A DNA stretch of 64,000 nt, from the NCBI GenBank assembly GCA_016196035.1, contig JACPYM010000099.1, positions 869-64,868 on the forward strand, in the 5' to 3' direction. Under the pieces are notes generated by a model. The model worked only from the letters and a program-made list of their open reading frames with translations, ran no database searches and was not told the origin of the DNA. The number at the start of each line of letters is the position of its first letter. The stretch's first letter is position 1. The stretch is from Acidobacteriota bacterium (GTDB lineage: Bacteria; Acidobacteriota; Blastocatellia; RBC074). The position numbers and the translations under genes are program-made. Below are positions 54,342 through 64,000 of the stretch, in pieces.

Positions 54342-56699
54342 TCAATTCAACCCAAGGCGTTGGAGGAGCGCTTGAAAGCGCGGTTCGTTGCGCAACGGAT
54401 CGAACTTGGGTTCGACCGCCAACAGCACGAGTGCGTCGGCGTGCTCTTCGACGGCTTTGGCGAGCAGGTCGAACGCGCGTTCTTTTTCGCCCAAGCCGAC
54501 GGCCAGGATGGCGAGGTAATAAGCCGATACATAGCGTTGCTGGCCGAGCGTTTGCAGCTTGTTGGCCACCGCCAGCGCCTCTGCACGATTGCCCGCCGTA
54601 GCCAATCCGTGGCCCAAATAGGTGAGCGTCGCAGGCGTTTCGTCTATTTGTGCGGCGCGCCGGAATTCAACTAGCGCCTGCGCGCGGTCGCCTTTCTGTT
54701 CGTAAGCCCAGCCGAGGAAGAAGTGCGCGAAGGCAAAATTTTGATCAAGTTCGAGCGTGCGTTTGAGCTGGTCAATCGCCTCGTCATAACGCCGCGCGAA
54801 ATAAGGCAGCAAGCCTAGATTGGCGTTGATGATGAGCGAAAGCGGATCGAGTTGCTGAGCCTGTTTGAGTTCGACCAGGGCTTCGGCATTGCGCTGGCGA
54901 TACGCCAGCAACAGTCCGTACCACTGGTGCGCCGAAGCGTAATTGCCATCCAGCGCAATCGCGCGTTTGAACGAACGCTCGGCTTCGGCGTAATTCCAAT
55001 CGTAGCGCCATTGCACGATGCCCAGCGAAGCGTGCGCGGCGGCGAGTTGATCGTCGAGCGCCAACGCTTTTTCCACGGCTGCGCGCGCGCGCGGAATGGC
55101 TTCGCTCGGCGGGCGTTCCAACCCCGACAACGTATGCCAGGCATCGGCCAGCCCGACGTAAGCCAACGCGAACTGGGGATCGAGTTGGATGGCCCTGTCG
55201 AATTCCTCAACCGCGCGTTTGGTTTCCGGGATGGTGCGGCGGTTCCAATGATAGCGACCTTTCAGATAAGCCTGCCACGCTTCGTTGCTGTGCGTCGCCC
55301 GCGTTTCGCTGCGGGTGCGCTCTTCGTCGGTCAGACGCTGGCGCAACTTGCCCGTGATGTCGCGCGTGATGAGCGTTTGCAACGCCAGCAATTCCGCCGG
55401 GCGGCCTTTGTAACTATCGCCCCACAATTGCGCGCCGTTTTTTGCGTCAATCAGATCGGCCTGAATTTGCAACTCATCGCCGCGTTGCTGCACGCGCCCG
55501 GTCAGAATGGCTTGCACCTGCAACTGTTGCCCCAACGTTTGCGGATCGAATTCGCGCCCCTTGAACCGAAAGGCCGTGGTGCGCGCCAACACCCGCAAGC
55601 CCGGCAAGCGCGACAGATTGTTGATGAGGCTTTCCGTGATGCCGTCGCTGACATATTCATCACCGCCACTGTTGGTGAAGGGCAGCACGGCGAGGGCTTC
55701 GATTTGCGTGCTTGCGGGCCGCAGCCAATACCGCCACGCGCCGAACGCAGCCACGCACAAGACAATTGCGCCAACCACAGCGTAAAGCCTACGCCGCGCT
55801 TTAACCGGTGCCGCGACGGTTTCCGCGGCAACTGGCGCTTCAGCCAATAGCACCGGAGCCAGCGCCGGAGCCAGCGCCGCCGCGCTGAAATCACCGCTCG
55901 CGCGCGGCCCGCTTGCCAACGCAGCGCCTGTGAATTGCCCCGCCACAATCTGTTCGTACAACGCCGTCGTGGCCGGTTCCGGTTCGGCGTCGAGTTCCCT
56001 GCGCACGGCTTCGCGGCAGCGTTGGTATTGTTCGATGGCCTGATGGCGGCTGCCGCTGCGTGCGTAAAGCTCCATCAGGCGGCGCTGCGCTTCTTCGTTG
56101 GCGGCGTTAAAGCCGAGCAGCCGTTGCCACTGTTCGATGCTTTGGGCCGTTTGTCCGCCGCTTTCGTAAAGTTGCGCCAGATGTTCGAGCAAGCGTTGCG
56201 CCAGCCGCCGCAACTGTTCGCGCCGCGCCACGGCCCAGTCTTCGTACCGGTCTTCTTCGAGCAAATCGCCCGCATAAAGCGCCAAGGCCGTCTCGCACGC
56301 GCCGCTGTCAGCCCCTTTCAACGCCGCCGCCGCCTGTTGCTCAAAGGCTTCGACATCAATCCACAAGGCGCCGTGCAACTGCACGTGCTGCTCGTAAGTT
56401 TGCAGGAAGCGCGATTGCGCGCCGCTTTTCAGATCGGGTTCGAGCGCGCGCCGCGCCGCGTGCAAGGCTTTGTTCAGATTATTGGCGGCCAGTTCGGGTT
56501 CGAGTTCAGGCCAGAGGGCTTCCATCAATTGCTCGCGGTGCAACTGATGCTGCGGGGCGAGCGCCAGCAATTTGAGCAGGGCTTTGGCCTTGCGCCGCAT
56601 CCAATGCCGTTCGGCCACCACCGTGCCGTTCACGGCGATGCTGGCCGCGCCGAGCAGCCGCAGTTCGAGTTTGTCAGGCGTTTGGGGAGTTGAATTCAT
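54342..56699 (-). CDS. Membrane-bound transcriptional regulator: winged-helix (OmpR/SARP-type) DNA-binding domain, a BTAD, a TM segment, then a periplasmic TolB-N-like domain and TPR repeats.
   Basis: LELRLLGAASIAVNG...RRKAKALLKLLALAP is an SARP/OmpR-type wHTH. Then a BTAD-like helical region and a TM (LYAVVGAIVLCVAAFGAW). LAVLPFTNSGGDEYVSDGITESLINNLSRLPGLRVLAR is the TolB-N-like module. C-terminal TPRs follow. Confidence 0.7.
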   Translation of the reverse strand: MNSTPQTPDKLELRLLGAASIAVNGTVVAERHWMRRKAKALLKLLALAPQHQLHREQLMEALWPELEPELAANNLNKALHAARRALEPDLKSGAQSRFLQTYEQHVQLHGALWIDVEAFEQQAAAALKGADSGACETALALYAGDLLEEDRYEDWAVARREQLRRLAQRLLEHLAQLYESGGQTAQSIEQWQRLLGFNAANEEAQRRLMELYARSGSRHQAIEQYQRCREAVRRELDAEPEPATTALYEQIVAGQFTGAALASGPRASGDFSAAALAPALAPVLLAEAPVAAETVAAPVKARRRLYAVVGAIVLCVAAFGAWRYWLRPASTQIEALAVLPFTNSGGDEYVSDGITESLINNLSRLPGLRVLARTTAFRFKGREFDPQTLGQQLQVQAILTGRVQQRGDELQIQADLIDAKNGAQLWGDSYKGRPAELLALQTLITRDITGKLRQRLTDEERTRSETRATHSNEAWQAYLKGRYHWNRRTIPETKRAVEEFDRAIQLDPQFALAYVGLADAWHTLSGLERPPSEAIPRARAAVEKALALDDQLAAAHASLGIVQWRYDWNYAEAERSFKRAIALDGNYASAHQWYGLLLAYRQRNAEALVELKQAQQLDPLSLIINANLGLLPYFARRYDEAIDQLKRTLELDQNFAFAHFFLGWAYEQKGDRAQALVEFRRAAQIDETPATLTYLGHGLATAGNRAEALAVANKLQTLGQQRYVSAYYLAILAVGLGEKERAFDLLAKAVEEHADALVLLAVEPKFDPLRNEPRFQALLQRLGLN

Positions 56700-57279: not shown

Positions 57280-59610
57280 TCATTTAACGTTGACCAGCAA
57301 GCCATTCGCCGCGCGCCCCTCCGCAGACAACGCCAGATTGCCATCGCCCCGCCCGCGCAAGGAACGCGGCACCCGCAGATTGACCTGATCCAACCCAACC
57401 AAGCCTGCCACCTGGTCGGCAAACAAGACTTCAGCATTCGCCCCACCCAGCGTCGCGGTCACAGCGGTCAACGAGCTGCGCCCGCGAATGCCTGTGCCAA
57501 ACAGCACCAGGAACACCTGATCGCTGGCCGTGCCCAAGTCCGGCCCCAAATCAATCGGTACGGCGACAAAGCGATTCTGCGCCGCATCGAAGCGCGCCAA
57601 AGCTTCATAGCTTTGTGTGCCGTCAGCCTTGACGCGCAACACCACGCCCGAAGGCACGCCTTGACCGTTTGCATTGGCGCTGAACAACCCCGGCGCAACC
57701 GGCAAAATCTGTAGCGTCCCGGCGGACACCACACCATTCCCACCCGTGATCGTCACGGAAGCCGTTCCGGGCAACGTGCCCAGCGGAATTTGATAATTGA
57801 CCTGTGTCGGCGCGACGAAAAAGAGCGGCGCGAGCCGTTCGATGCCCAGACTGTCTTTGACCAAGACCCGCGTGCCCGCCAGCGTGGTCGGCAAAGGCAC
57901 CGTGGCTGCCGCTTGCGTAGCGGTCGCTAACTCTGAGCCGAATGCCGCCACGATGGATTCAGGCGCAAAGGCGGCGGCACTGAAACTGGCGGCTGAGACA
58001 CTGGCGACAGCGCCGGTCGGCAAGCGATCCAATGCCGCGATTTCATTGCTCGACAGCGCCGTGTTGAACAGTCGAAGGCGCGCCACGTAGCCGCCTGACG
58101 CCTCGCCATCGCCCACATTGTCGCGAAAGAACCGCAGCGTGTTGCCTTCGAGCAGCGCGTCGCCGTTGGCGTCCACAAACGAAAATTGATTGACGCCGTT
58201 CAGGTAGACCGCCACGCCGCCCGCCGCATTGCGCGTCATTGCCAACTGCACAAAGTTATTCGCCGCGATGACGCGATTGTTACTATCGAGGTACGAGTTA
58301 TTGACGCGTTTGAAGACCAAGCGGCCTTCATAACAATACAGGCCGTTCTCGCTCGTGCCATTTTTGAAATCCAGCAACCGGCGATACTCCGAGACGGCGC
58401 TCAGCGCCAACAAAGCGACCACAGTGTACGCCTGATTGGAGACGACGCCGGCGGTCGAAAACAACGCCACGCCATTGTTCGGATCGAATTTCAAGGCGCG
58501 GCGCACACGACCATCCACCTCCACATTCTCAAAGCCGTTGCCGCCCAGATTGAGCAGCACGGGCGGAAAACCTGCCGCGCTGCCGAGCGTGCCTTGAAAT
58601 TGATAATCCGCCGCGAGCGCCGGCGTCGTCGCGTTCGACACGCTGAACACGGCGTTGGTTTGCGCCTCGCTGCAACCGGCTTTGCTCAAGGCGAGCGTGC
58701 CGGTGACGGCGCCGGCAGGCACGGTCACGTTGAGTTGCGTGTCGTCATTGCTGGTGAACACCGCATTGAGGTTGTTGGGAAAGCGCACGCTCGTCACGCC
58801 GCTCAAGCCCACGCCATTGAGCAAAAAACTCGCGCCCGCCGCGCCGCTGTTTTGCGCGAAGCCGCTGGGGCTGGGGCAACCGGCCTGCGCCTGCGGCAAA
58901 CGATCCAGCCCGGCAATCTCGCCGCCCGCCAGCGGCGCGTTATAGATACGTAACCGCGCCACCACGCCCGCCGACGCCTCGCCATCGTTGTCACGGAAAA
59001 AGCGCAGCGTGTTGTTCGCGCCAACGCTCGCGTCGCCCGCCGCGTCCGTGAAAAAGAATTGCCGTACACCGTTGACGTAGGCCGTCACATCGCCCTCGGC
59101 GCTGCGCGTCAGCACCAACTGGGCAAAGGTGTTGGGCGCGAGAATCAGCGTGTTGCTATCAATGTAGGAGTTATTGACGCGCTTGAAGACCAGCCGGTTG
59201 TTATAGCAATACAGCCCGTTGTCGGTTGTGCCGTTTTTGAAATCGAAGAGGCGGCGATAGCCGGAAACATTGCCGAGCGCGAACAACATCACGATGGTAT
59301 AGCTTTGATTGATCGCCAGCGCCGTTGTCGGCGTCAGCGATAACCCGTTGTTCGGCTCGAAATACAACGCGCGGCGCGTCACGTCGTCAATCGTCGCGTT
59401 GTCGAACGAATCGCCGCCGAGCTGCGTCAGCATAAGCGCATTGCTGAGGGAGCTATTCAGGTCATTCCGAAATTGATAATCGGCGACGAGGCCAGACGCC
59501 GCGCGGGGATCAAAAACGGCGCGCGGTTGTTTAGCCGCTATTCGGCGTAAGCCTGATAGCGCGCAAAACAAAGCGAGCAGTAACGCAATGACAAATCGTG
59601 AGCGGTTCAT
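57280..59610 (-). CDS. Secreted protein with two tandem copies of a roughly 190-aa lectin/LamG-like module, an IPT/TIG-like domain, and a C-terminal Soli_cterm-like domain.
   Basis: ATG at 59610 with AGAGGGA RBS and signal peptide [20 protein letters not shown]. There is an internal duplication (ADYQF...[11 protein letters not shown]...[23 protein letters not shown]...RLRIYNAPL versus ADYQF...[11 protein letters not shown]...[23 protein letters not shown]...RLRLFNTAL). The C-terminal 230 aa are homologous to the C-termini of 7521-15556. Confidence 0.8.
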
Positions 59611-59689: not shown

Positions 59690-59719
59690 GAATCCCGCCA
59701 ACCCCGGTTGGCGGGATTC
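59690..59719. other. Perfect palindrome gaatcccgccaaccccggttggcgggattc between the mini-protein gene and the Soli_cterm gene.
   Basis: 14-bp perfect arms with no adjacent T tract. Possibly an operator or attenuator rather than a classic terminator. Confidence 0.4.
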
Positions 59720-59791
59720 AAACGCTGCGGGGTTCACGGTTGACCGGCATTTGATAGCTGCACACCTTGCCGCCGCAGGCAAGCCAATGCG

Positions 59792-59941
59792 CTACGATTT
59801 GCCGGAGCCTTTGCACACCGTGCAATTGCCCGAGCCTTTGCACTTTTCGCAGTCATACGGTGGCAGGATGCTGCCGTTGGAGCCGCTGCCGTGACACTTC
59901 GAGCATTTGCCCGTGCCGTGACAACCTTTGCATTCAGCCAT
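59792..59941 (-). CDS. 49-aa mini-protein made of four CXXCXGXG repeats (DnaJ-type cysteine-rich zinc-finger module, free-standing).
   Basis: Hand translation of the minus strand gives MAECKGCHGTGKCSKCHGSGSNGSILPPYDCEKCKGSGNCTVCKGSGKS, with ATG at 59941 and TAG at 59794-59792. It is missing from the ORF track because it is under 60 aa. Four CxxCxGxG units are present. Confidence 0.6.
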   Translation of the reverse strand: MAECKGCHGTGKCSKCHGSGSNGSILPPYDCEKCKGSGNCTVCKGSGKS

Positions 59942-59985
59942 AGCGCTTTACCCCCTTTCGCGAAAGTTGGGCGTCGTGACCACCG

Positions 59986-60231
59986 CTATACCGGGCGACG
60001 AAAGGTCACGACGAAATACTCCACCAGCGATTGCCGCGCGCCGAATAACATCGCCAGACAGCCTGGCTGCACGACGACGCCGATGGTGTCCACGCGGTAA
60101 AACTCCCAGCCTTGCGCCGCCTGTTCGTTGGCAACGTTTTGCAGGTAATAAGCCGCTTCGTGGCCTTGCCATTCTTTGGCCGCGACTTGAATGGTCGGCG
60201 GCAGTTGGATCATTCGGTATTCGTAATTCAT
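59986..60231 (-). CDS. DUF4177-like small protein.
   Basis: ATG at 60231 with AGGAGG RBS. MNYEYRMIQL...AQGWEFYRVD...VTFRR matches the DUF4177 pattern I recall (EYK.I.L...LN..GWE...V). Confidence 0.55.
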   Translation of the reverse strand: MNYEYRMIQLPPTIQVAAKEWQGHEAAYYLQNVANEQAAQGWEFYRVDTIGVVVQPGCLAMLFGARQSLVEYFVVTFRRPV

Positions 60232-60301
60232 GTGTACCTCCTGGATTGAGTTTGTCGGACTGATTTGGTCAGTAAACCGACGCGGCTTGAGCCAACCACG
60301 A

Positions 60302-60868
60302 TCACCCGCAGGAATCCATTCCATTGAAATGTTTGGTTTGATCCGTCCAGCCGATTTGCCCTTTGCTGTTTTTGACCTTCACCCACCAAATGGATTGCGG
60401 TTGCTTCAGAATTTTGAAGAACGTGACATCATAAATCTCGGCCTCGCCCAGCTTCCCTTTGTACCAAACCTTGCTGCTGCCCTCGCCGAGATTGGTCAGG
60501 ATGTAAACGAGTTCGCCCGTGCTCACGCGCAACCCGCCAATCGCCGTCGGCTTGAGCGCCCGCGCTTGGCCCGGTTGCGTCGTAATCACCACGCCAGTCA
60601 CGCCCAACACTTTTTCACCGCGCCGCAAGGTAAAGGTCACAGGCGCATTGTTTTGCCGCTCTTGCCGAACGACGGTTGGCGCGCTGACCGTCCAACGGCG
60701 ATAGGTGCAGCATTCAAACGGACAAGCGCCATGATCCTCGTAAGGGAGCGATGGCCCGACATTGCGGCTTTGCGTCGAAGCCGCCGGTTGTTGCGGCGAA
60801 CTGCCTTGAAACGTTGTGGTGGCGGCGAGCCACGCAAAAACTACGAGAGCCAACGATTGATATTTCAT
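60302..60868 (-). CDS. Secreted protein of unknown function (188 aa), Cys-containing with an SH3b-like C-terminal region.
   Basis: ATG at 60868 and signal peptide MKYQSLALVVFAWLAATTTFQG. Confidence 0.55.
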   Translation of the reverse strand: MKYQSLALVVFAWLAATTTFQGSSPQQPAASTQSRNVGPSLPYEDHGACPFECCTYRRWTVSAPTVVRQERQNNAPVTFTLRRGEKVLGVTGVVITTQPGQARALKPTAIGGLRVSTGELVYILTNLGEGSSKVWYKGKLGEAEIYDVTFFKILKQPQSIWWVKVKNSKGQIGWTDQTKHFNGMDSCG

Positions 60869-60937
60869 AGCCGTAATTCCTTGAAGGATGATCTTTGTCC
60901 CGCGACTTTTCATCAGCTTGTTTGGGCGACGACATAG

Positions 60938-61648
60938 TTAGTCACCGACCAACCTGGCCCATTTCCAGCGAGCATCTGTTCCTAGTTCGAAAACAAGCGT
61001 TTCGGGTTTGATGGTTCGCTTTGCCTGTCTGCCACTGAAGTTCCAACAGGAGCTATCCTTGGGCCTGCAGTTCACAACTCCGCCGGTCACTGATTTCAGG
61101 ATGCGCTGCCAGGGAACCAGTCCCGTATCCATGTTTCTGATCACCTGGGCGGAATTGACCTGCCCGTCTCCCGCCCACTCAAAGCCGGCGGAGATCATTG
61201 ACCTTATGGCGGCGCGGTCACGCTGCTGAAGGGCGGCTCTGAATGCAGGCCAGAACGTAGCCCAATCACCTTGCTCCGGGTTAGTAGCGACATTTCCGGA
61301 AGTTCCTTTGAGATTGGTGACGCGCACTGCCTTCACGTCATAAGTTTTGCTGGCGGCAGACCACTTTGCCCCAACGTAATCAACCTTGACGCGTGTGCCG
61401 ACCTTGATGTCTTGATCTCCAATGATCTGTGGGCTGTCTTTGATTTTGCCCGGGCAACCAAGACAAAAGGTGTATGTTTTGCCGCCCGCCTCGACTACCG
61501 TGGTGTCGCCATGCGCTCCGATCTCGTATTCGATGACAATCCCTGTGATAGTGGCCGCGCCAGTGGCATTTCTGGCGGCAGGCCGTTGGGCATAACTCAG
61601 CGCTGTGAACACCAATAGAACTGCAACCGCGATTTGAACGCTGCTCAT
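60938..61648 (-). CDS. Secreted protein of unknown function (236 aa).
   Basis: Signal peptide MSSVQIAVAVLLVFTALSYAQ. No recognisable domain. Confidence 0.55.
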   Translation of the reverse strand: MSSVQIAVAVLLVFTALSYAQRPAARNATGAATITGIVIEYEIGAHGDTTVVEAGGKTYTFCLGCPGKIKDSPQIIGDQDIKVGTRVKVDYVGAKWSAASKTYDVKAVRVTNLKGTSGNVATNPEQGDWATFWPAFRAALQQRDRAAIRSMISAGFEWAGDGQVNSAQVIRNMDTGLVPWQRILKSVTGGVVNCRPKDSSCWNFSGRQAKRTIKPETLVFELGTDARWKWARLVGD

Positions 61649-61888
61649 TGTTCCTCCATCAGTCCGTCGTTAAAATGTTGTCAAACTAAACTGCACCCAA
61701 CGAACGCAATGCTTGCAAAATCTGGAATCCAGTGGCACGCCGCTGCCACATTGCGAACATTGTCTTTCGGCAGCTTTGACTGTCTCGTACATAGGCTCGT
61801 CTTTCATGAGCTAAAGCGCACTTGCGAGGAATTTCAGCGCAAGCGAACGCAAATAAATTTTTCTCGCGATACCGGCAGACTTGGGTTG

Positions 61889-64000
61889 TTATTTCCATTC
61901 GCCTTGCAACACGAAGCCCGCCCAAAAATACGGCGCGGCAAACTCGCGGTCACGCCACATCTCCAACTGCGCCGCACGCAAGGCAGCGGCGGGCGATAAG
62001 CGCGGCGCGCCCAACAGGTGTTTATAAAACTTGACCATCAGCGTGGCCGAAGCGCGGTCTTCGATCTTCCAGGCGCTGACCACCACGCGCGGCGCGCCGG
62101 CGTACATAAAGCCGCGCGCCAGACTTAGCAGCCCTTCGCCTTTGACCTCTTTGCCGAGCGCGGTTTGGCAGGCGCTCAGCACCACCAGATCGGCGTTGAG
62201 CCGCAGGTTGTAAATATCGTGCAGGCGCAGGAAGCCATCTTGCGTGCGCCCTTGTGCGTCGAGCAGCGAGAGCACCAGACCCGACAGTTCGGGATGCGCG
62301 CTGTGCAAAAAGCTGTGCGAAGCGAAATGCACAATCCGGTAATCGGCGAGCGCACCGCTGACGGCTTGCACGCGGTTGGCGGCGAAGCCCGTGGCTTTGA
62401 GCGCGCGCGCGGCGGGCACGAGCGGGGCGATGTGGTCGGCTTCCCAACCGGTGTTGGCCAGACGATGAAACTGCAATGACGCACCCGTCTCGTTGAAAAC
62501 TTCCGCCGCGCGCAACAAGGCACGCGAATGCGCGGGCGACACGCCGTCCGGCGGCGTTTGCAGGCGACTTGACCCGGCGGTGCGCCCAAGTTTTTGCCCA
62601 AGCTGTTGCCCAAGCTGTTGTTTGAAGCGCGGGTCATCCGTTTCAAACACCGGGTCGGCCAGCAGTGCAAGCGTTTTCGGTGCGGGCTGCCGTCCGGCCA
62701 TCTCGCGGCGCAAGACGGCTAGCGTCGAAGCCGAGGGCAGATAAACAATCTCGTGTTTTACCAGCAGCGGCTCAGGCGTGGCGGAAGCGTGGCTGGCCGG
62801 ATCAGGCAGCGCGCTGAAGGGAATGAATTGCAATTTGCCCTGCGCGACGATCAGCAAGCGTTGGCCGCCCAATTGCGCGGCGACGGGGCCGAGAATCATT
62901 TGGCTCAAAGCGGCGGCCTGCGCGGGTAATTCAGCCTCGGCGCGCGTGGCGCGTTGTTGCGTCTGGCGCGGCGTTTCGCCCTTCACTTCCCGATTGCGCG
63001 CGGTCAGCAAAGAGTAAACACGCGCCGCCTGCGCTTCGATCTCCGCGCGTTTTGGTAATTCGTAACTGGTCACGGCGCGCGGCGTAACGGCGAACAGATA
63101 GCTGTGCTCTTCACCCAAGGCGTATTCGAGCAGCAGGGTGTTTTCATCCAGCAATTCGTGTTGAATCTGTTCAGCCGTCAGCGGCTGCGGTTGCGTCAAC
63201 ACGGCATAGCGTGGGCTGACGGCACGAATGCGCGTCTGGGTTTCTTGCAATTGGCTGAGGACGCTTTTGATTTCAGCGGCCAGGGCTGCCGCCTGCTCGG
63301 CGCTGTGTTTGCCACTGAGCAAACGCACTTGATATTCGGACTTGCCGTTGAGCAACTGTTGCAACTCGCGTTCGCGCGCGAGTAACGCGGCGTCACCACC
63401 CTGCGTAAGATTCGCGCGGATTTCACCCAACGATTCCAGCAGGCTGCGCGCCGAGGCGCGTTCGCTGAGATGCAGCGCCAGCCGCGTGTCAGCCTCACGG
63501 CGCGCCGGGTTGTGCGCCGGTTGCAGCAACAGATCGAGGTAGAACTCGTAATAGTCGCGCACGCTGGCGAGATACGAAGCACGCAAATTCTGGCTGATGA
63601 CGCTGGCGCGCAACGATTCGATCAGGCTGAGTGCGGTTTCGATGTCGCGGCGCGCTTCCGGCAACAGACCGAGGCTGCGTTCGGTGCGCGCCAGCAAGAA
63701 GAGCGTCTGCGCCTCGCCTTCGGGCGCTTGCACGGCGCGGTGGAGTTGCAAGGCTTGTTGCAGGCAATCGCGCGCGGTTTGGTTGTCACCCAGCGCTTGA
63801 TGAACCTCGCCGAGTCCGGTCAGCGTGGCCGCTTCGCCGCTGCGTGCGCCAATCTCGCGCCAGAGGGCCAGGGCTTGCTGATAATGTTCAAGCGCCTGTG
63901 GCTTTTCAGCGGTTGCGCTGTAAAGCTGGCCGAACAATGCCAGCGCCTCCGCTTCTCCACGCCGCTGTTTATACTTGCGGCCAAGTTCGAGTGCTTCGTT
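61889..64000 (-). CDS. TPR-repeat protein with a C-terminal CHAT (caspase-like) domain; the N-terminus extends past the window end.
   Basis: N-terminal TPRs (LALWREIGARSGEAATLTGLGEVHQALGDNQTARDCLQQALQLHR...). C-terminal CHAT signature (HFASHS...DADLVVLSACQTALGKEVKGEGLLSLARGFMYAGAPRVVVSAWKIED). The frame stays open and TPR-like (..EALELGRKYKQRRGEAEALALFGQ) to position 64000. Confidence 0.75.
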   Translation of the reverse strand, partial: NEALELGRKYKQRRGEAEALALFGQLYSATAEKPQALEHYQQALALWREIGARSGEAATLTGLGEVHQALGDNQTARDCLQQALQLHRAVQAPEGEAQTLFLLARTERSLGLLPEARRDIETALSLIESLRASVISQNLRASYLASVRDYYEFYLDLLLQPAHNPARREADTRLALHLSERASARSLLESLGEIRANLTQGGDAALLARERELQQLLNGKSEYQVRLLSGKHSAEQAAALAAEIKSVLSQLQETQTRIRAVSPRYAVLTQPQPLTAEQIQHELLDENTLLLEYALGEEHSYLFAVTPRAVTSYELPKRAEIEAQAARVYSLLTARNREVKGETPRQTQQRATRAEAELPAQAAALSQMILGPVAAQLGGQRLLIVAQGKLQFIPFSALPDPASHASATPEPLLVKHEIVYLPSASTLAVLRREMAGRQPAPKTLALLADPVFETDDPRFKQQLGQQLGQKLGRTAGSSRLQTPPDGVSPAHSRALLRAAEVFNETGASLQFHRLANTGWEADHIAPLVPAARALKATGFAANRVQAVSGALADYRIVHFASHSFLHSAHPELSGLVLSLLDAQGRTQDGFLRLHDIYNLRLNADLVVLSACQTALGKEVKGEGLLSLARGFMYAGAPRVVVSAWKIEDRASATLMVKFYKHLLGAPRLSPAAALRAAQLEMWRDREFAAPYFWAGFVLQGEWK

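Follow-up and report, generated by a model that had tools for sequence, protein, structure and literature searches.

What does a zinc finger of only 49 amino acids (aa) do beside a gene for a DUF4177-like protein, and do the larger genes around these two belong with them? The question is raised by the last few kilobases of a 64,000-nucleotide (nt) stretch of DNA from an Acidobacteriota bacterium (assembly GCA_016196035.1, contig JACPYM010000099.1), referred to here as the window. A sequence-only reading of this stretch had proposed a possible regulatory or defence module made up of a mini-gene encoding four CXXCXGXG motifs, a DUF4177 gene, two genes for secreted proteins and a gene for a TPR-CHAT protein. 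We found that in the window the mini-gene and the DUF4177-like gene form a bicistronic-looking pair, and that this pair recurs elsewhere as a cassette with partner swapping, both gene orders and natural fusions.

The mini-gene is an open reading frame (ORF) that starts with an ATG (59941..59792) and encodes MAECKGCHGTGKCSKCHGSGSNGSILPPYDCEKCKGSGNCTVCKGSGKS, exactly the minus-strand translation given by the sequence-only reading, with four repeats and nothing else attached. All four motifs are perfect, they come without a J domain, an HPD motif or C-terminal substrate-binding domains, and they account for four of the five CXXCXGXG motifs in a six-frame translation of the whole 64-kb window. A word-indexed search of 5.8 billion proteins with the mini-protein returned only one called homolog, which reflects how seldom the gene is called and not its absence; with an exhaustive search, 71 representative clusters were obtained (E < 1e-3), and roughly half of these were free-standing proteins of 46-75 aa. 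A metagenome scan keyed on a ..CxGSGNCTV.. pattern conserved in the mini-protein yielded 71 loci, which together with the window, L001 and L015 made 74 ORFs (L-numbers denote related loci fetched for comparison, P-numbers homologous proteins). Nearly all of them were 46-51 aa long, with an M-x-E-C-K-G-C start and all eight cysteines kept; four motifs were retained in most members, and visible decay was seen in a few loci (L061, L119, L121-123). The ratio of nonsynonymous to synonymous substitution rates (dN/dS) against the window mini-gene was 0.09-0.14 for the closest relatives, with a median of 0.11 over 123 pairs, and thus not near 1. Judged by these intact ORFs and their coding signature, the mini-ORF is a genuine conserved gene under purifying selection, contrary to the condition (no conservation in related genomes, or dN/dS near 1) under which the sequence-only reading was to count as refuted. 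In another assembly of the same organism (L130 2216-2323, about window 59850-59750) the gene caller skipped the mini-gene and took a 35-aa antisense ORF, and in the Chloroflexota homolog (L134/L135) a 91-aa call in a different frame replaces the finger gene.

The mini-protein belongs with a known kind, the free-standing DnaJ-type zinc-finger proteins, and it is the pairing with a DUF4177-like protein that is previously undescribed. No curated Pfam model reached its threshold on the 16 family members scanned: 15 matched DUF7895 (at best 25.2 bits against a cut-off of 27), seven matched DnaJ_CXXCXGXG with E < 0.01, one matched Anti-TRAP (PF15777, E = 2e-3), and the window mini-protein itself scored 18.9 bits against PF00684, below the gathering threshold of 32.7. 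The best matches of the family profile in the PDB were the cysteine-rich (CR) domains of DnaJ (2CTT, 9e-6; 1EXK, 2e-5), with anti-TRAP (3LCZ) at 7e-3. The DnaJ domain likewise has four CXXCXGXG repeats, with two zinc centres, but the mini-protein lacks the J domain, the glycine/phenylalanine-rich (G/F) region and the C-terminal domains of DnaJ, and with 49 aa in total it has far shorter spacers. Anti-TRAP (RtpA/AT) of Bacillus is, like the mini-protein, a free-standing protein of about 50 aa made of CXXCXGXG zinc motifs only; it is under T-box control and acts by binding and blocking another protein, TRAP. Its ~53 aa, however, hold two motifs and one Zn(Cys)4 site, against four motifs, eight cysteines and two predicted zincs in the mini-protein, and the sequence match is marginal. 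The plastid proteins BSD2, ZnJ2, PSA2 and OR also carry a CR domain without a J domain and serve as client-specific holdases or assembly factors (PMC5818400, PMC4806229); they differ from the mini-protein in their eukaryotic origin, plastid targeting, greater length and known clients. The finger beside the DUF4177-like gene in L004 gave a weak match to BSD2_CRD.

The identity of the larger partner as DUF4177 held in part. Its score against the Pfam DUF4177 model (PF13783) was 18.6 bits, under the 25-bit cut-off (orf3 of Haemophilus phage HP1 scored 23.6), but it matched phrog_12383 at 1.7e-29 over residues 3-81 (HP1 orf3, 3.7e-38), and relatives are labelled DUF4177 by NCBI, with five homologs carrying a precomputed PF13783 match. 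The 128 homologs (50-88% identity, mostly 75-125 aa) share the invariant residues Q9, A27, W42, F44, R46, D48, P56-G57-C58, G64, V74, T76 and F77. AlphaFold2 (AF2) predicted a confident small α/β fold (predicted local distance difference test score, pLDDT, 91.6), for which no significant structural neighbour was found in the PDB; the best neighbours in BFVD were DUF4177-annotated phage proteins (probability 0.95-1.0, TM ~0.5), at an E-value of only ~0.03. An activity has been claimed from experiment for just one DUF4177 protein, a distant member of 66 aa; it is described as bacteriocin-like, and the protein was never purified (PMC11322243).

Scanning one genome from each species for the peptide GWEFYRVD gave 55 DUF4177-like loci from Acidobacteriota, Chloroflexota, Bipolaricaulota, Calditrichota, Planctomycetota, Pseudomonas, Paraburkholderia, Azotobacter, Shewanella and others. 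In 30 of the 55, the DUF4177-like gene has a small Cys-rich ORF as a same-strand neighbour no more than ~120 nt away, before or after it. The partner was a YidD paralog (PF01809, ~1e-20) abutting downstream in 18 loci (L013, L014, L016, L017, L018, L020, L021, L023, L025, L026, L028, L029, L031, L034, L035, L036, L040 and L041), a DnaJ-type four-motif finger within 100 nt in six (downstream in L001, L004 and L015, upstream in L005, L019 and L046), a double zinc ribbon in four (upstream in L007 and L047, downstream in L032 and L043) and a RING-like finger, upstream, in two (L003 and L010). Possible single zinc ribbons in L038, L042 and L055 come in addition to the 30, and a DnaJ-type finger 1.2 kb from the DUF4177-like gene in L011 was left out of the count. 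A deliberately crude count placed 20 small Cys-rich ORFs in the adjacent zone (3.3% of the sequence) and 9 elsewhere (binomial P ~2e-23); six of these nine were adjacent YidD genes with over-extended start calls. The association extends to single polypeptides, since a zinc ribbon is fused to the DUF4177-like domain in three natural proteins, N-terminally in P0065 and P0106 and C-terminally in P0074. The closest relative, L001, keeps both the DUF4177-like gene and the mini-gene, at 86% and 84% identity. Clustering of flanking ORFs and a Pfam scan of 101 flanking genes revealed no family in more than 5 of the 55 loci, within-genus synteny excepted.

Some of these loci have neighbours of their own. 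The RING-like finger of L010 (7229-8237) stands between a TerB-like gene and the DUF4177-like gene, in that order, and in a Deinococcus metagenome-assembled genome (MAG) the DUF4177-like gene directly follows a cas6e-type gene (L037 1270-2341; PF08798, 8.5e-52), with a partial downstream ORF that looks Cas1-like by eye but has no Pfam match. In L134 (1647-4816), from a member of the Chloroflexota with a DUF4177-like gene and a finger gene, a STAND-type NTPase (AAA_16/NB-ARC) and a TPR protein are encoded divergently upstream; this loosely echoes the TPR-CHAT neighbour in the window and may be coincidence.

Versions of the pair are also carried by mobile elements. Those of HP1, of an E. coli prophage and of a Klebsiella plasmid contain the same DUF4177-like family (42-54% identity) abutting a small Cys-rich gene; what sets them apart from the window is a YidD paralog (PF01809) as partner and their location on a mobile element. 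In HP1, orf3 (DUF4177-like) is followed without a gap by orf2 (YidD-like) in the PL operon cI-orf4-orf3-orf2-orf1-int. A P88-like (P2-family) prophage carries the pair in 20 of 5,426 complete E. coli genomes, with the two genes overlapping by 8 nt at the host-junction end of the prophage beside Hok/Gef and Ogr, and PGAP annotates them as "DUF4177 domain-containing protein" and "yidD". The record of phage P88 itself has no annotation for the YidD-like gene, which is divided there between two reading frames (L127 383-617). Relative to P88, most of the 20 prophage copies from E. coli are shorter by one base in the matched stretch and have an intact, annotated yidD; the split in P88 is probably a sequencing error or a strain-specific frameshift. 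The Klebsiella pair lies on an IncF plasmid beside two ccdAB pairs and a RES toxin, that of Pseudomonas between lambda-like tail genes and that of Azotobacter after an Ogr/Delta gene, and both genes were present, abutting or overlapping, in 7 of 8 contigs from IMG/VR. On a Bacteriovoracaceae chromosome (L040 8001-10564), an OLD-family nuclease (AAA_15 plus OLD-like TOPRIM) is encoded directly downstream of the DUF4177-like and YidD-like genes. These mobile-element contexts suggest a role in exclusion, addiction or defence.

On balance, we think it somewhat probable that the mini-protein is a free-standing two-zinc finger of the DnaJ CR type, that the pair represents a widespread cassette, and that the zinc protein binds its DUF4177-like partner. 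In such a cassette one partner would be the highly conserved 81-aa protein of the HP1 orf3 family, and the second, presumably zinc-binding, would be interchangeable among a YidD paralog, a DnaJ-type finger, a RING-like finger and a zinc ribbon. The zinc protein would bind the DUF4177-like protein stoichiometrically and may stabilise, hold or gate it; precedents would be the action of anti-TRAP on TRAP and of CR-only holdases of the BSD2/ZnJ2 type on their clients. The invariant Cys58 of the DUF4177-like protein suggests thiol or zinc chemistry at the interface.

Several points weigh against this interpretation. About 20 of the 55 DUF4177-like loci have no Cys-rich partner, and the partners that do occur have unrelated structures, which leaves no obvious interface common to all of them. 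AF2 yielded no informative model of the mini-protein (pLDDT 52.8, with two sequences in the alignment). Both locus scans were keyed on one peptide each, so the samples are biased and the frequencies describe subsets of the families. A further point comes from the window's own mini-protein subfamily, in which a DUF4177-like neighbour was found in only one of the 71 metagenome loci (L091), and whose closest homologs, in L056 and L057 (88% identity), follow a TerB-like gene instead.

The neighbours of this subfamily are varied. The mini-gene typically comes last, and the gene before it, at a gap of -4 to -60 nt, varies: it encodes a 125-aa unknown protein in 9 loci, a 320-aa lipoprotein in 7-9, a 114-aa unknown protein in 4, a DUF4177-like protein in 4 (window included) and a TerB-like protein in 2, and the homologs in L058 and L059 (84% identity to the window mini-protein) follow other genes. 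In the two TerB loci (L056 2517-3147 and L057 1764-2394) the TerB-like gene is followed by the DnaJ-type mini-gene; the TerB-like protein (PF05099) there is 57% identical to that of L010, and in both settings its gene lies directly upstream of a small zinc finger. In L094, L096, L098, L100-L103, L122 and L123 the mini-gene follows the gene for the ~125-aa protein, which has no Pfam match, at a gap of 0 to -19 nt, an overlap suggestive of translational coupling to one more partner. A set of vWA-like, membrane and Tubulin_2-like genes comes after the mini-gene in 13-14 loci: the mini-gene lies immediately upstream of the gene for a ~500-aa vWA-like protein with a DESGSM motif resembling a metal ion-dependent adhesion site (MIDAS) in L061-L064, L067-L071, L074, L075, L088, L090 and L093, followed in most of them by a ~180-aa membrane protein and then a Tubulin_2/FtsZl1-like protein. 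These loci look like the vWA/FtsZl1 operons predicted by Makarova and Koonin 2010 (PMC2875224). A YidD-domain protein of greater length (126-179 aa; PF01809, 3e-7) is encoded no more than ~270 nt from the mini-gene, upstream in L068, L071 and L093 and downstream in L109, so YidD-like proteins and DnaJ-type fingers co-occur without a DUF4177-like protein as well.

Because the reciprocal test fails, the relationship is many-to-many: DUF4177-like genes usually stand with some Cys-rich partner, and the finger family stands with many partners. The link between mini-protein and DUF4177 drawn in the sequence-only reading is thus non-random when seen from the DUF4177-like side but is not a dedicated one. 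In a rival reading the two genes are functionally independent, the mini-protein being a general-purpose small zinc-finger holdase or regulator placed on many operons and its adjacency to the DUF4177-like gene a matter of Blastocatellia ancestry. The other 70 of the 71 subfamily loci, the at least five different upstream families at -4 to -60 nt and the position of the mini-gene at the head of vWA-membrane-Tubulin_2 operons all favour independence. Common ancestry, however, does not readily account for the different subfamily of four-motif fingers that adjoins DUF4177-like genes in Chloroflexota, other Acidobacteriota and Dehalococcoidales (L004, L005 and L019), nor for the window's own subfamily adjoining one in Calditrichaceae (L015), and the zinc-ribbon fusions and the enrichment of Cys-rich ORFs next to DUF4177-like genes also speak against it. 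We consider independence unlikely, though it is an explanation to be taken seriously.

We are more doubtful that the pair is a mobile toxin-antitoxin-like, exclusion or anti-phage module, in which the DUF4177-like protein would be the effector and the zinc protein an antitoxin or sensor, or the reverse. As in type II toxin-antitoxin systems, the two genes are small, co-oriented and often overlapping, they occur on phages and plasmids, and partners are swapped, here with both gene orders. Their sites in the cI-int lysogeny operon of HP1, beside Hok/Gef and Ogr at the end of P2-like prophages that holds the attachment site, among Pseudomonas tail genes, in the ccdAB/RES neighbourhood of the IncF plasmid and next to the OLD-family nuclease of L040 point the same way. 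Unlike type II systems, however, solo copies of both the DUF4177-like gene and the mini-gene are common, and no prophage or plasmid genes were found among the annotated genes of the window. For the product of an arms-race gene, the DUF4177-like protein shows unusually high conservation between phyla, and the mini-protein subfamily had no matches in viral contigs. Neither the DUF4177-like protein nor its YidD-like partner matched any model in PADLOC-DB v2, and the mini-protein gave only a weak match that was not significant, to the C-terminal finger of PDC-M01B (E = 9e-4). The defence or regulatory role put forward in the sequence-only reading is accordingly conjectural. A more specific proposal would make the HP1 orf3-family protein and its swappable zinc/Cys protein a new, widespread two-gene exclusion, abortive infection or addiction system of temperate phages, plasmids and chromosomal islands, with the zinc protein serving as a zinc- or redox-sensitive switch or antitoxin through the invariant cysteine. 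We hold this, too, to be improbable, because solo copies are common, the cross-phylum conservation is unusual and no known defence model matches.

The features of the window locus are collected in Table 1.

Table 1. Features of the minus-strand gene cluster in the window
Feature	Position (nt)	Strand	Remarks
Perfect G+C-rich hairpin, 13 bp	59690..59719	-	~70 nt past the mini-gene stop; no U-tract
Mini-gene; 49-aa protein, four CXXCXGXG motifs, 8 Cys, two predicted zinc sites	59792..59941	-	Stop codon included
Shine-Dalgarno-like AAGGGGG	59951..59957	-	9 nt 5' of the mini-gene ATG; read from the sequence
DUF4177-like gene; 81-aa protein (HP1 orf3 / phrog_12383 family)	59986..60231	-	44 nt upstream of the mini-gene
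AGGAGG ribosome-binding site	60237..60242	-	5 nt before the DUF4177-like ATG
Secreted protein, 188 aa	60302..60868	-	Likely start 60868; longest ORF from 60913
Secreted protein, 236 aa	60938..61648	-	
TPR-CHAT protein	61889..64000	-	N-terminus past the window end

In the direction of transcription the minus-strand order is TPR-CHAT, the 236-aa and the 188-aa secreted protein, the DUF4177-like gene, the mini-gene, the hairpin and a LamG protein with a Solibacter C-terminal domain. The AGGAGG site of the DUF4177-like gene was correctly recognised on the same strand, but the gene precedes the mini-gene and does not follow it as had been supposed. The mini-gene is probably co-transcribed with this neighbour 44 nt upstream, from which 70 nt, holding the AGGAGG, separate the 188-aa gene; the gap between the TPR-CHAT gene and the 236-aa gene is 240 nt, and the TPR-CHAT gene is for that reason probably a separate transcription unit. 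A scan for terminators and promoters revealed nothing convincing within the cluster. The hairpin region (minimum free energy -53.4 kcal/mol, z = -2.9) is a candidate for the 3' end of the transcript. Downstream lie the LamG/Solibacter protein (TIGR03437, 1.9e-40) and a BTAD/TPR/TolB_N regulator (window 54342-56699 and 57280-59610), followed in a sister assembly by an extracytoplasmic function (ECF) sigma factor. The LamG/Solibacter and BTAD/TPR/TolB_N neighbours are typical chromosomal genes of Acidobacteriota, and there are no prophage signs.

The TPR-CHAT protein and the two secreted proteins were recognised correctly as such. The former matched CHAT (PF12770) at 2e-66 and TPR_12 at 9e-18 and has both the caspase-like histidine (VHFASHSF) and cysteine (VLSACQT); the contigs of other assemblies likewise break within its gene. 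The 236-aa and 188-aa proteins have N-termini that look like signal peptides by inspection, and they had no match in Pfam, NCBIfam, PHROG or PADLOC. The larger idea, a five-gene conflict or regulated-proteolysis module around the TPR-CHAT protease, did not hold up and is in our view very unlikely. It could draw on a CHAT homolog (44% identity) directly upstream of the DUF4177-like gene in L002, where there is no mini-gene, and on another in L056 (60-63% identity), which lies 2.3 kb before the mini-gene at a locus with no DUF4177-like gene. With the window counted, however, only 2 of 56 DUF4177-like loci had a CHAT gene, as did 2 of 74 mini-gene loci, all from one lineage (Blastocatellia); L001, the closest genome that retains the pair, has no CHAT gene, and tblastn found no homolog of either secreted protein in ~135 related loci. 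Proximity of CHAT to the pair genes in Blastocatellia alone fits conservation of gene order within a lineage better than a functional unit, and the 240-nt gap agrees with this. The genes for TPR-CHAT and for both secreted proteins are local, lineage-specific neighbours and no part of the cassette. In L002 (8001-12574), from a Blastocatellales MAG, the CHAT and DUF4177-like genes are followed by genes for a 75-aa beta-rich protein, a 123-aa membrane protein and a 1213-aa Tubulin_2 protein (PF13809, 2.7e-67), and the 75-aa beta-rich protein also follows the DUF4177-like gene in L006 and L049.

That the mini-protein is the precursor of a peptide made on the ribosome and modified after translation (RiPP) like the cysimiditides, whose precursors also carry zinc-binding CXXCXGXG motifs, two in number (bioRxiv 10.1101/2024.10.02.616296), is hardly credible and was rejected, as the annotated flanking genes scanned in the window and the mini-gene loci included no methyltransferase, PIMT-like or otherwise, and no other modifying enzyme, the mini-proteins have four motifs, and the variable region between their motifs holds no conserved Asp-Gly.

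For the families concerned, these results recast the unit of interest as a DUF4177-like gene plus a small Cys-rich gene. Our literature search found no description of a pair of DUF4177-like and YidD-like or Cys-rich genes, and no paper describing the link; a search on YidD and phages gave matches that, where checked, concerned the "YIDD" motif of reverse transcriptases, with none by title on a phage YidD. The mini-protein family is strongly conserved, yet it is replaced by an antisense ORF in gene calls and matched by no curated Pfam model above threshold, and annotation pipelines call the YidD-like partner a second YidD, a "membrane protein insertion efficiency factor". Phage HP1, E. coli prophages of the P2-like kind and IncF plasmids of Klebsiella are tractable carriers of the cassette, so the functions of DUF4177 and of phage-borne YidD paralogs are directly testable.

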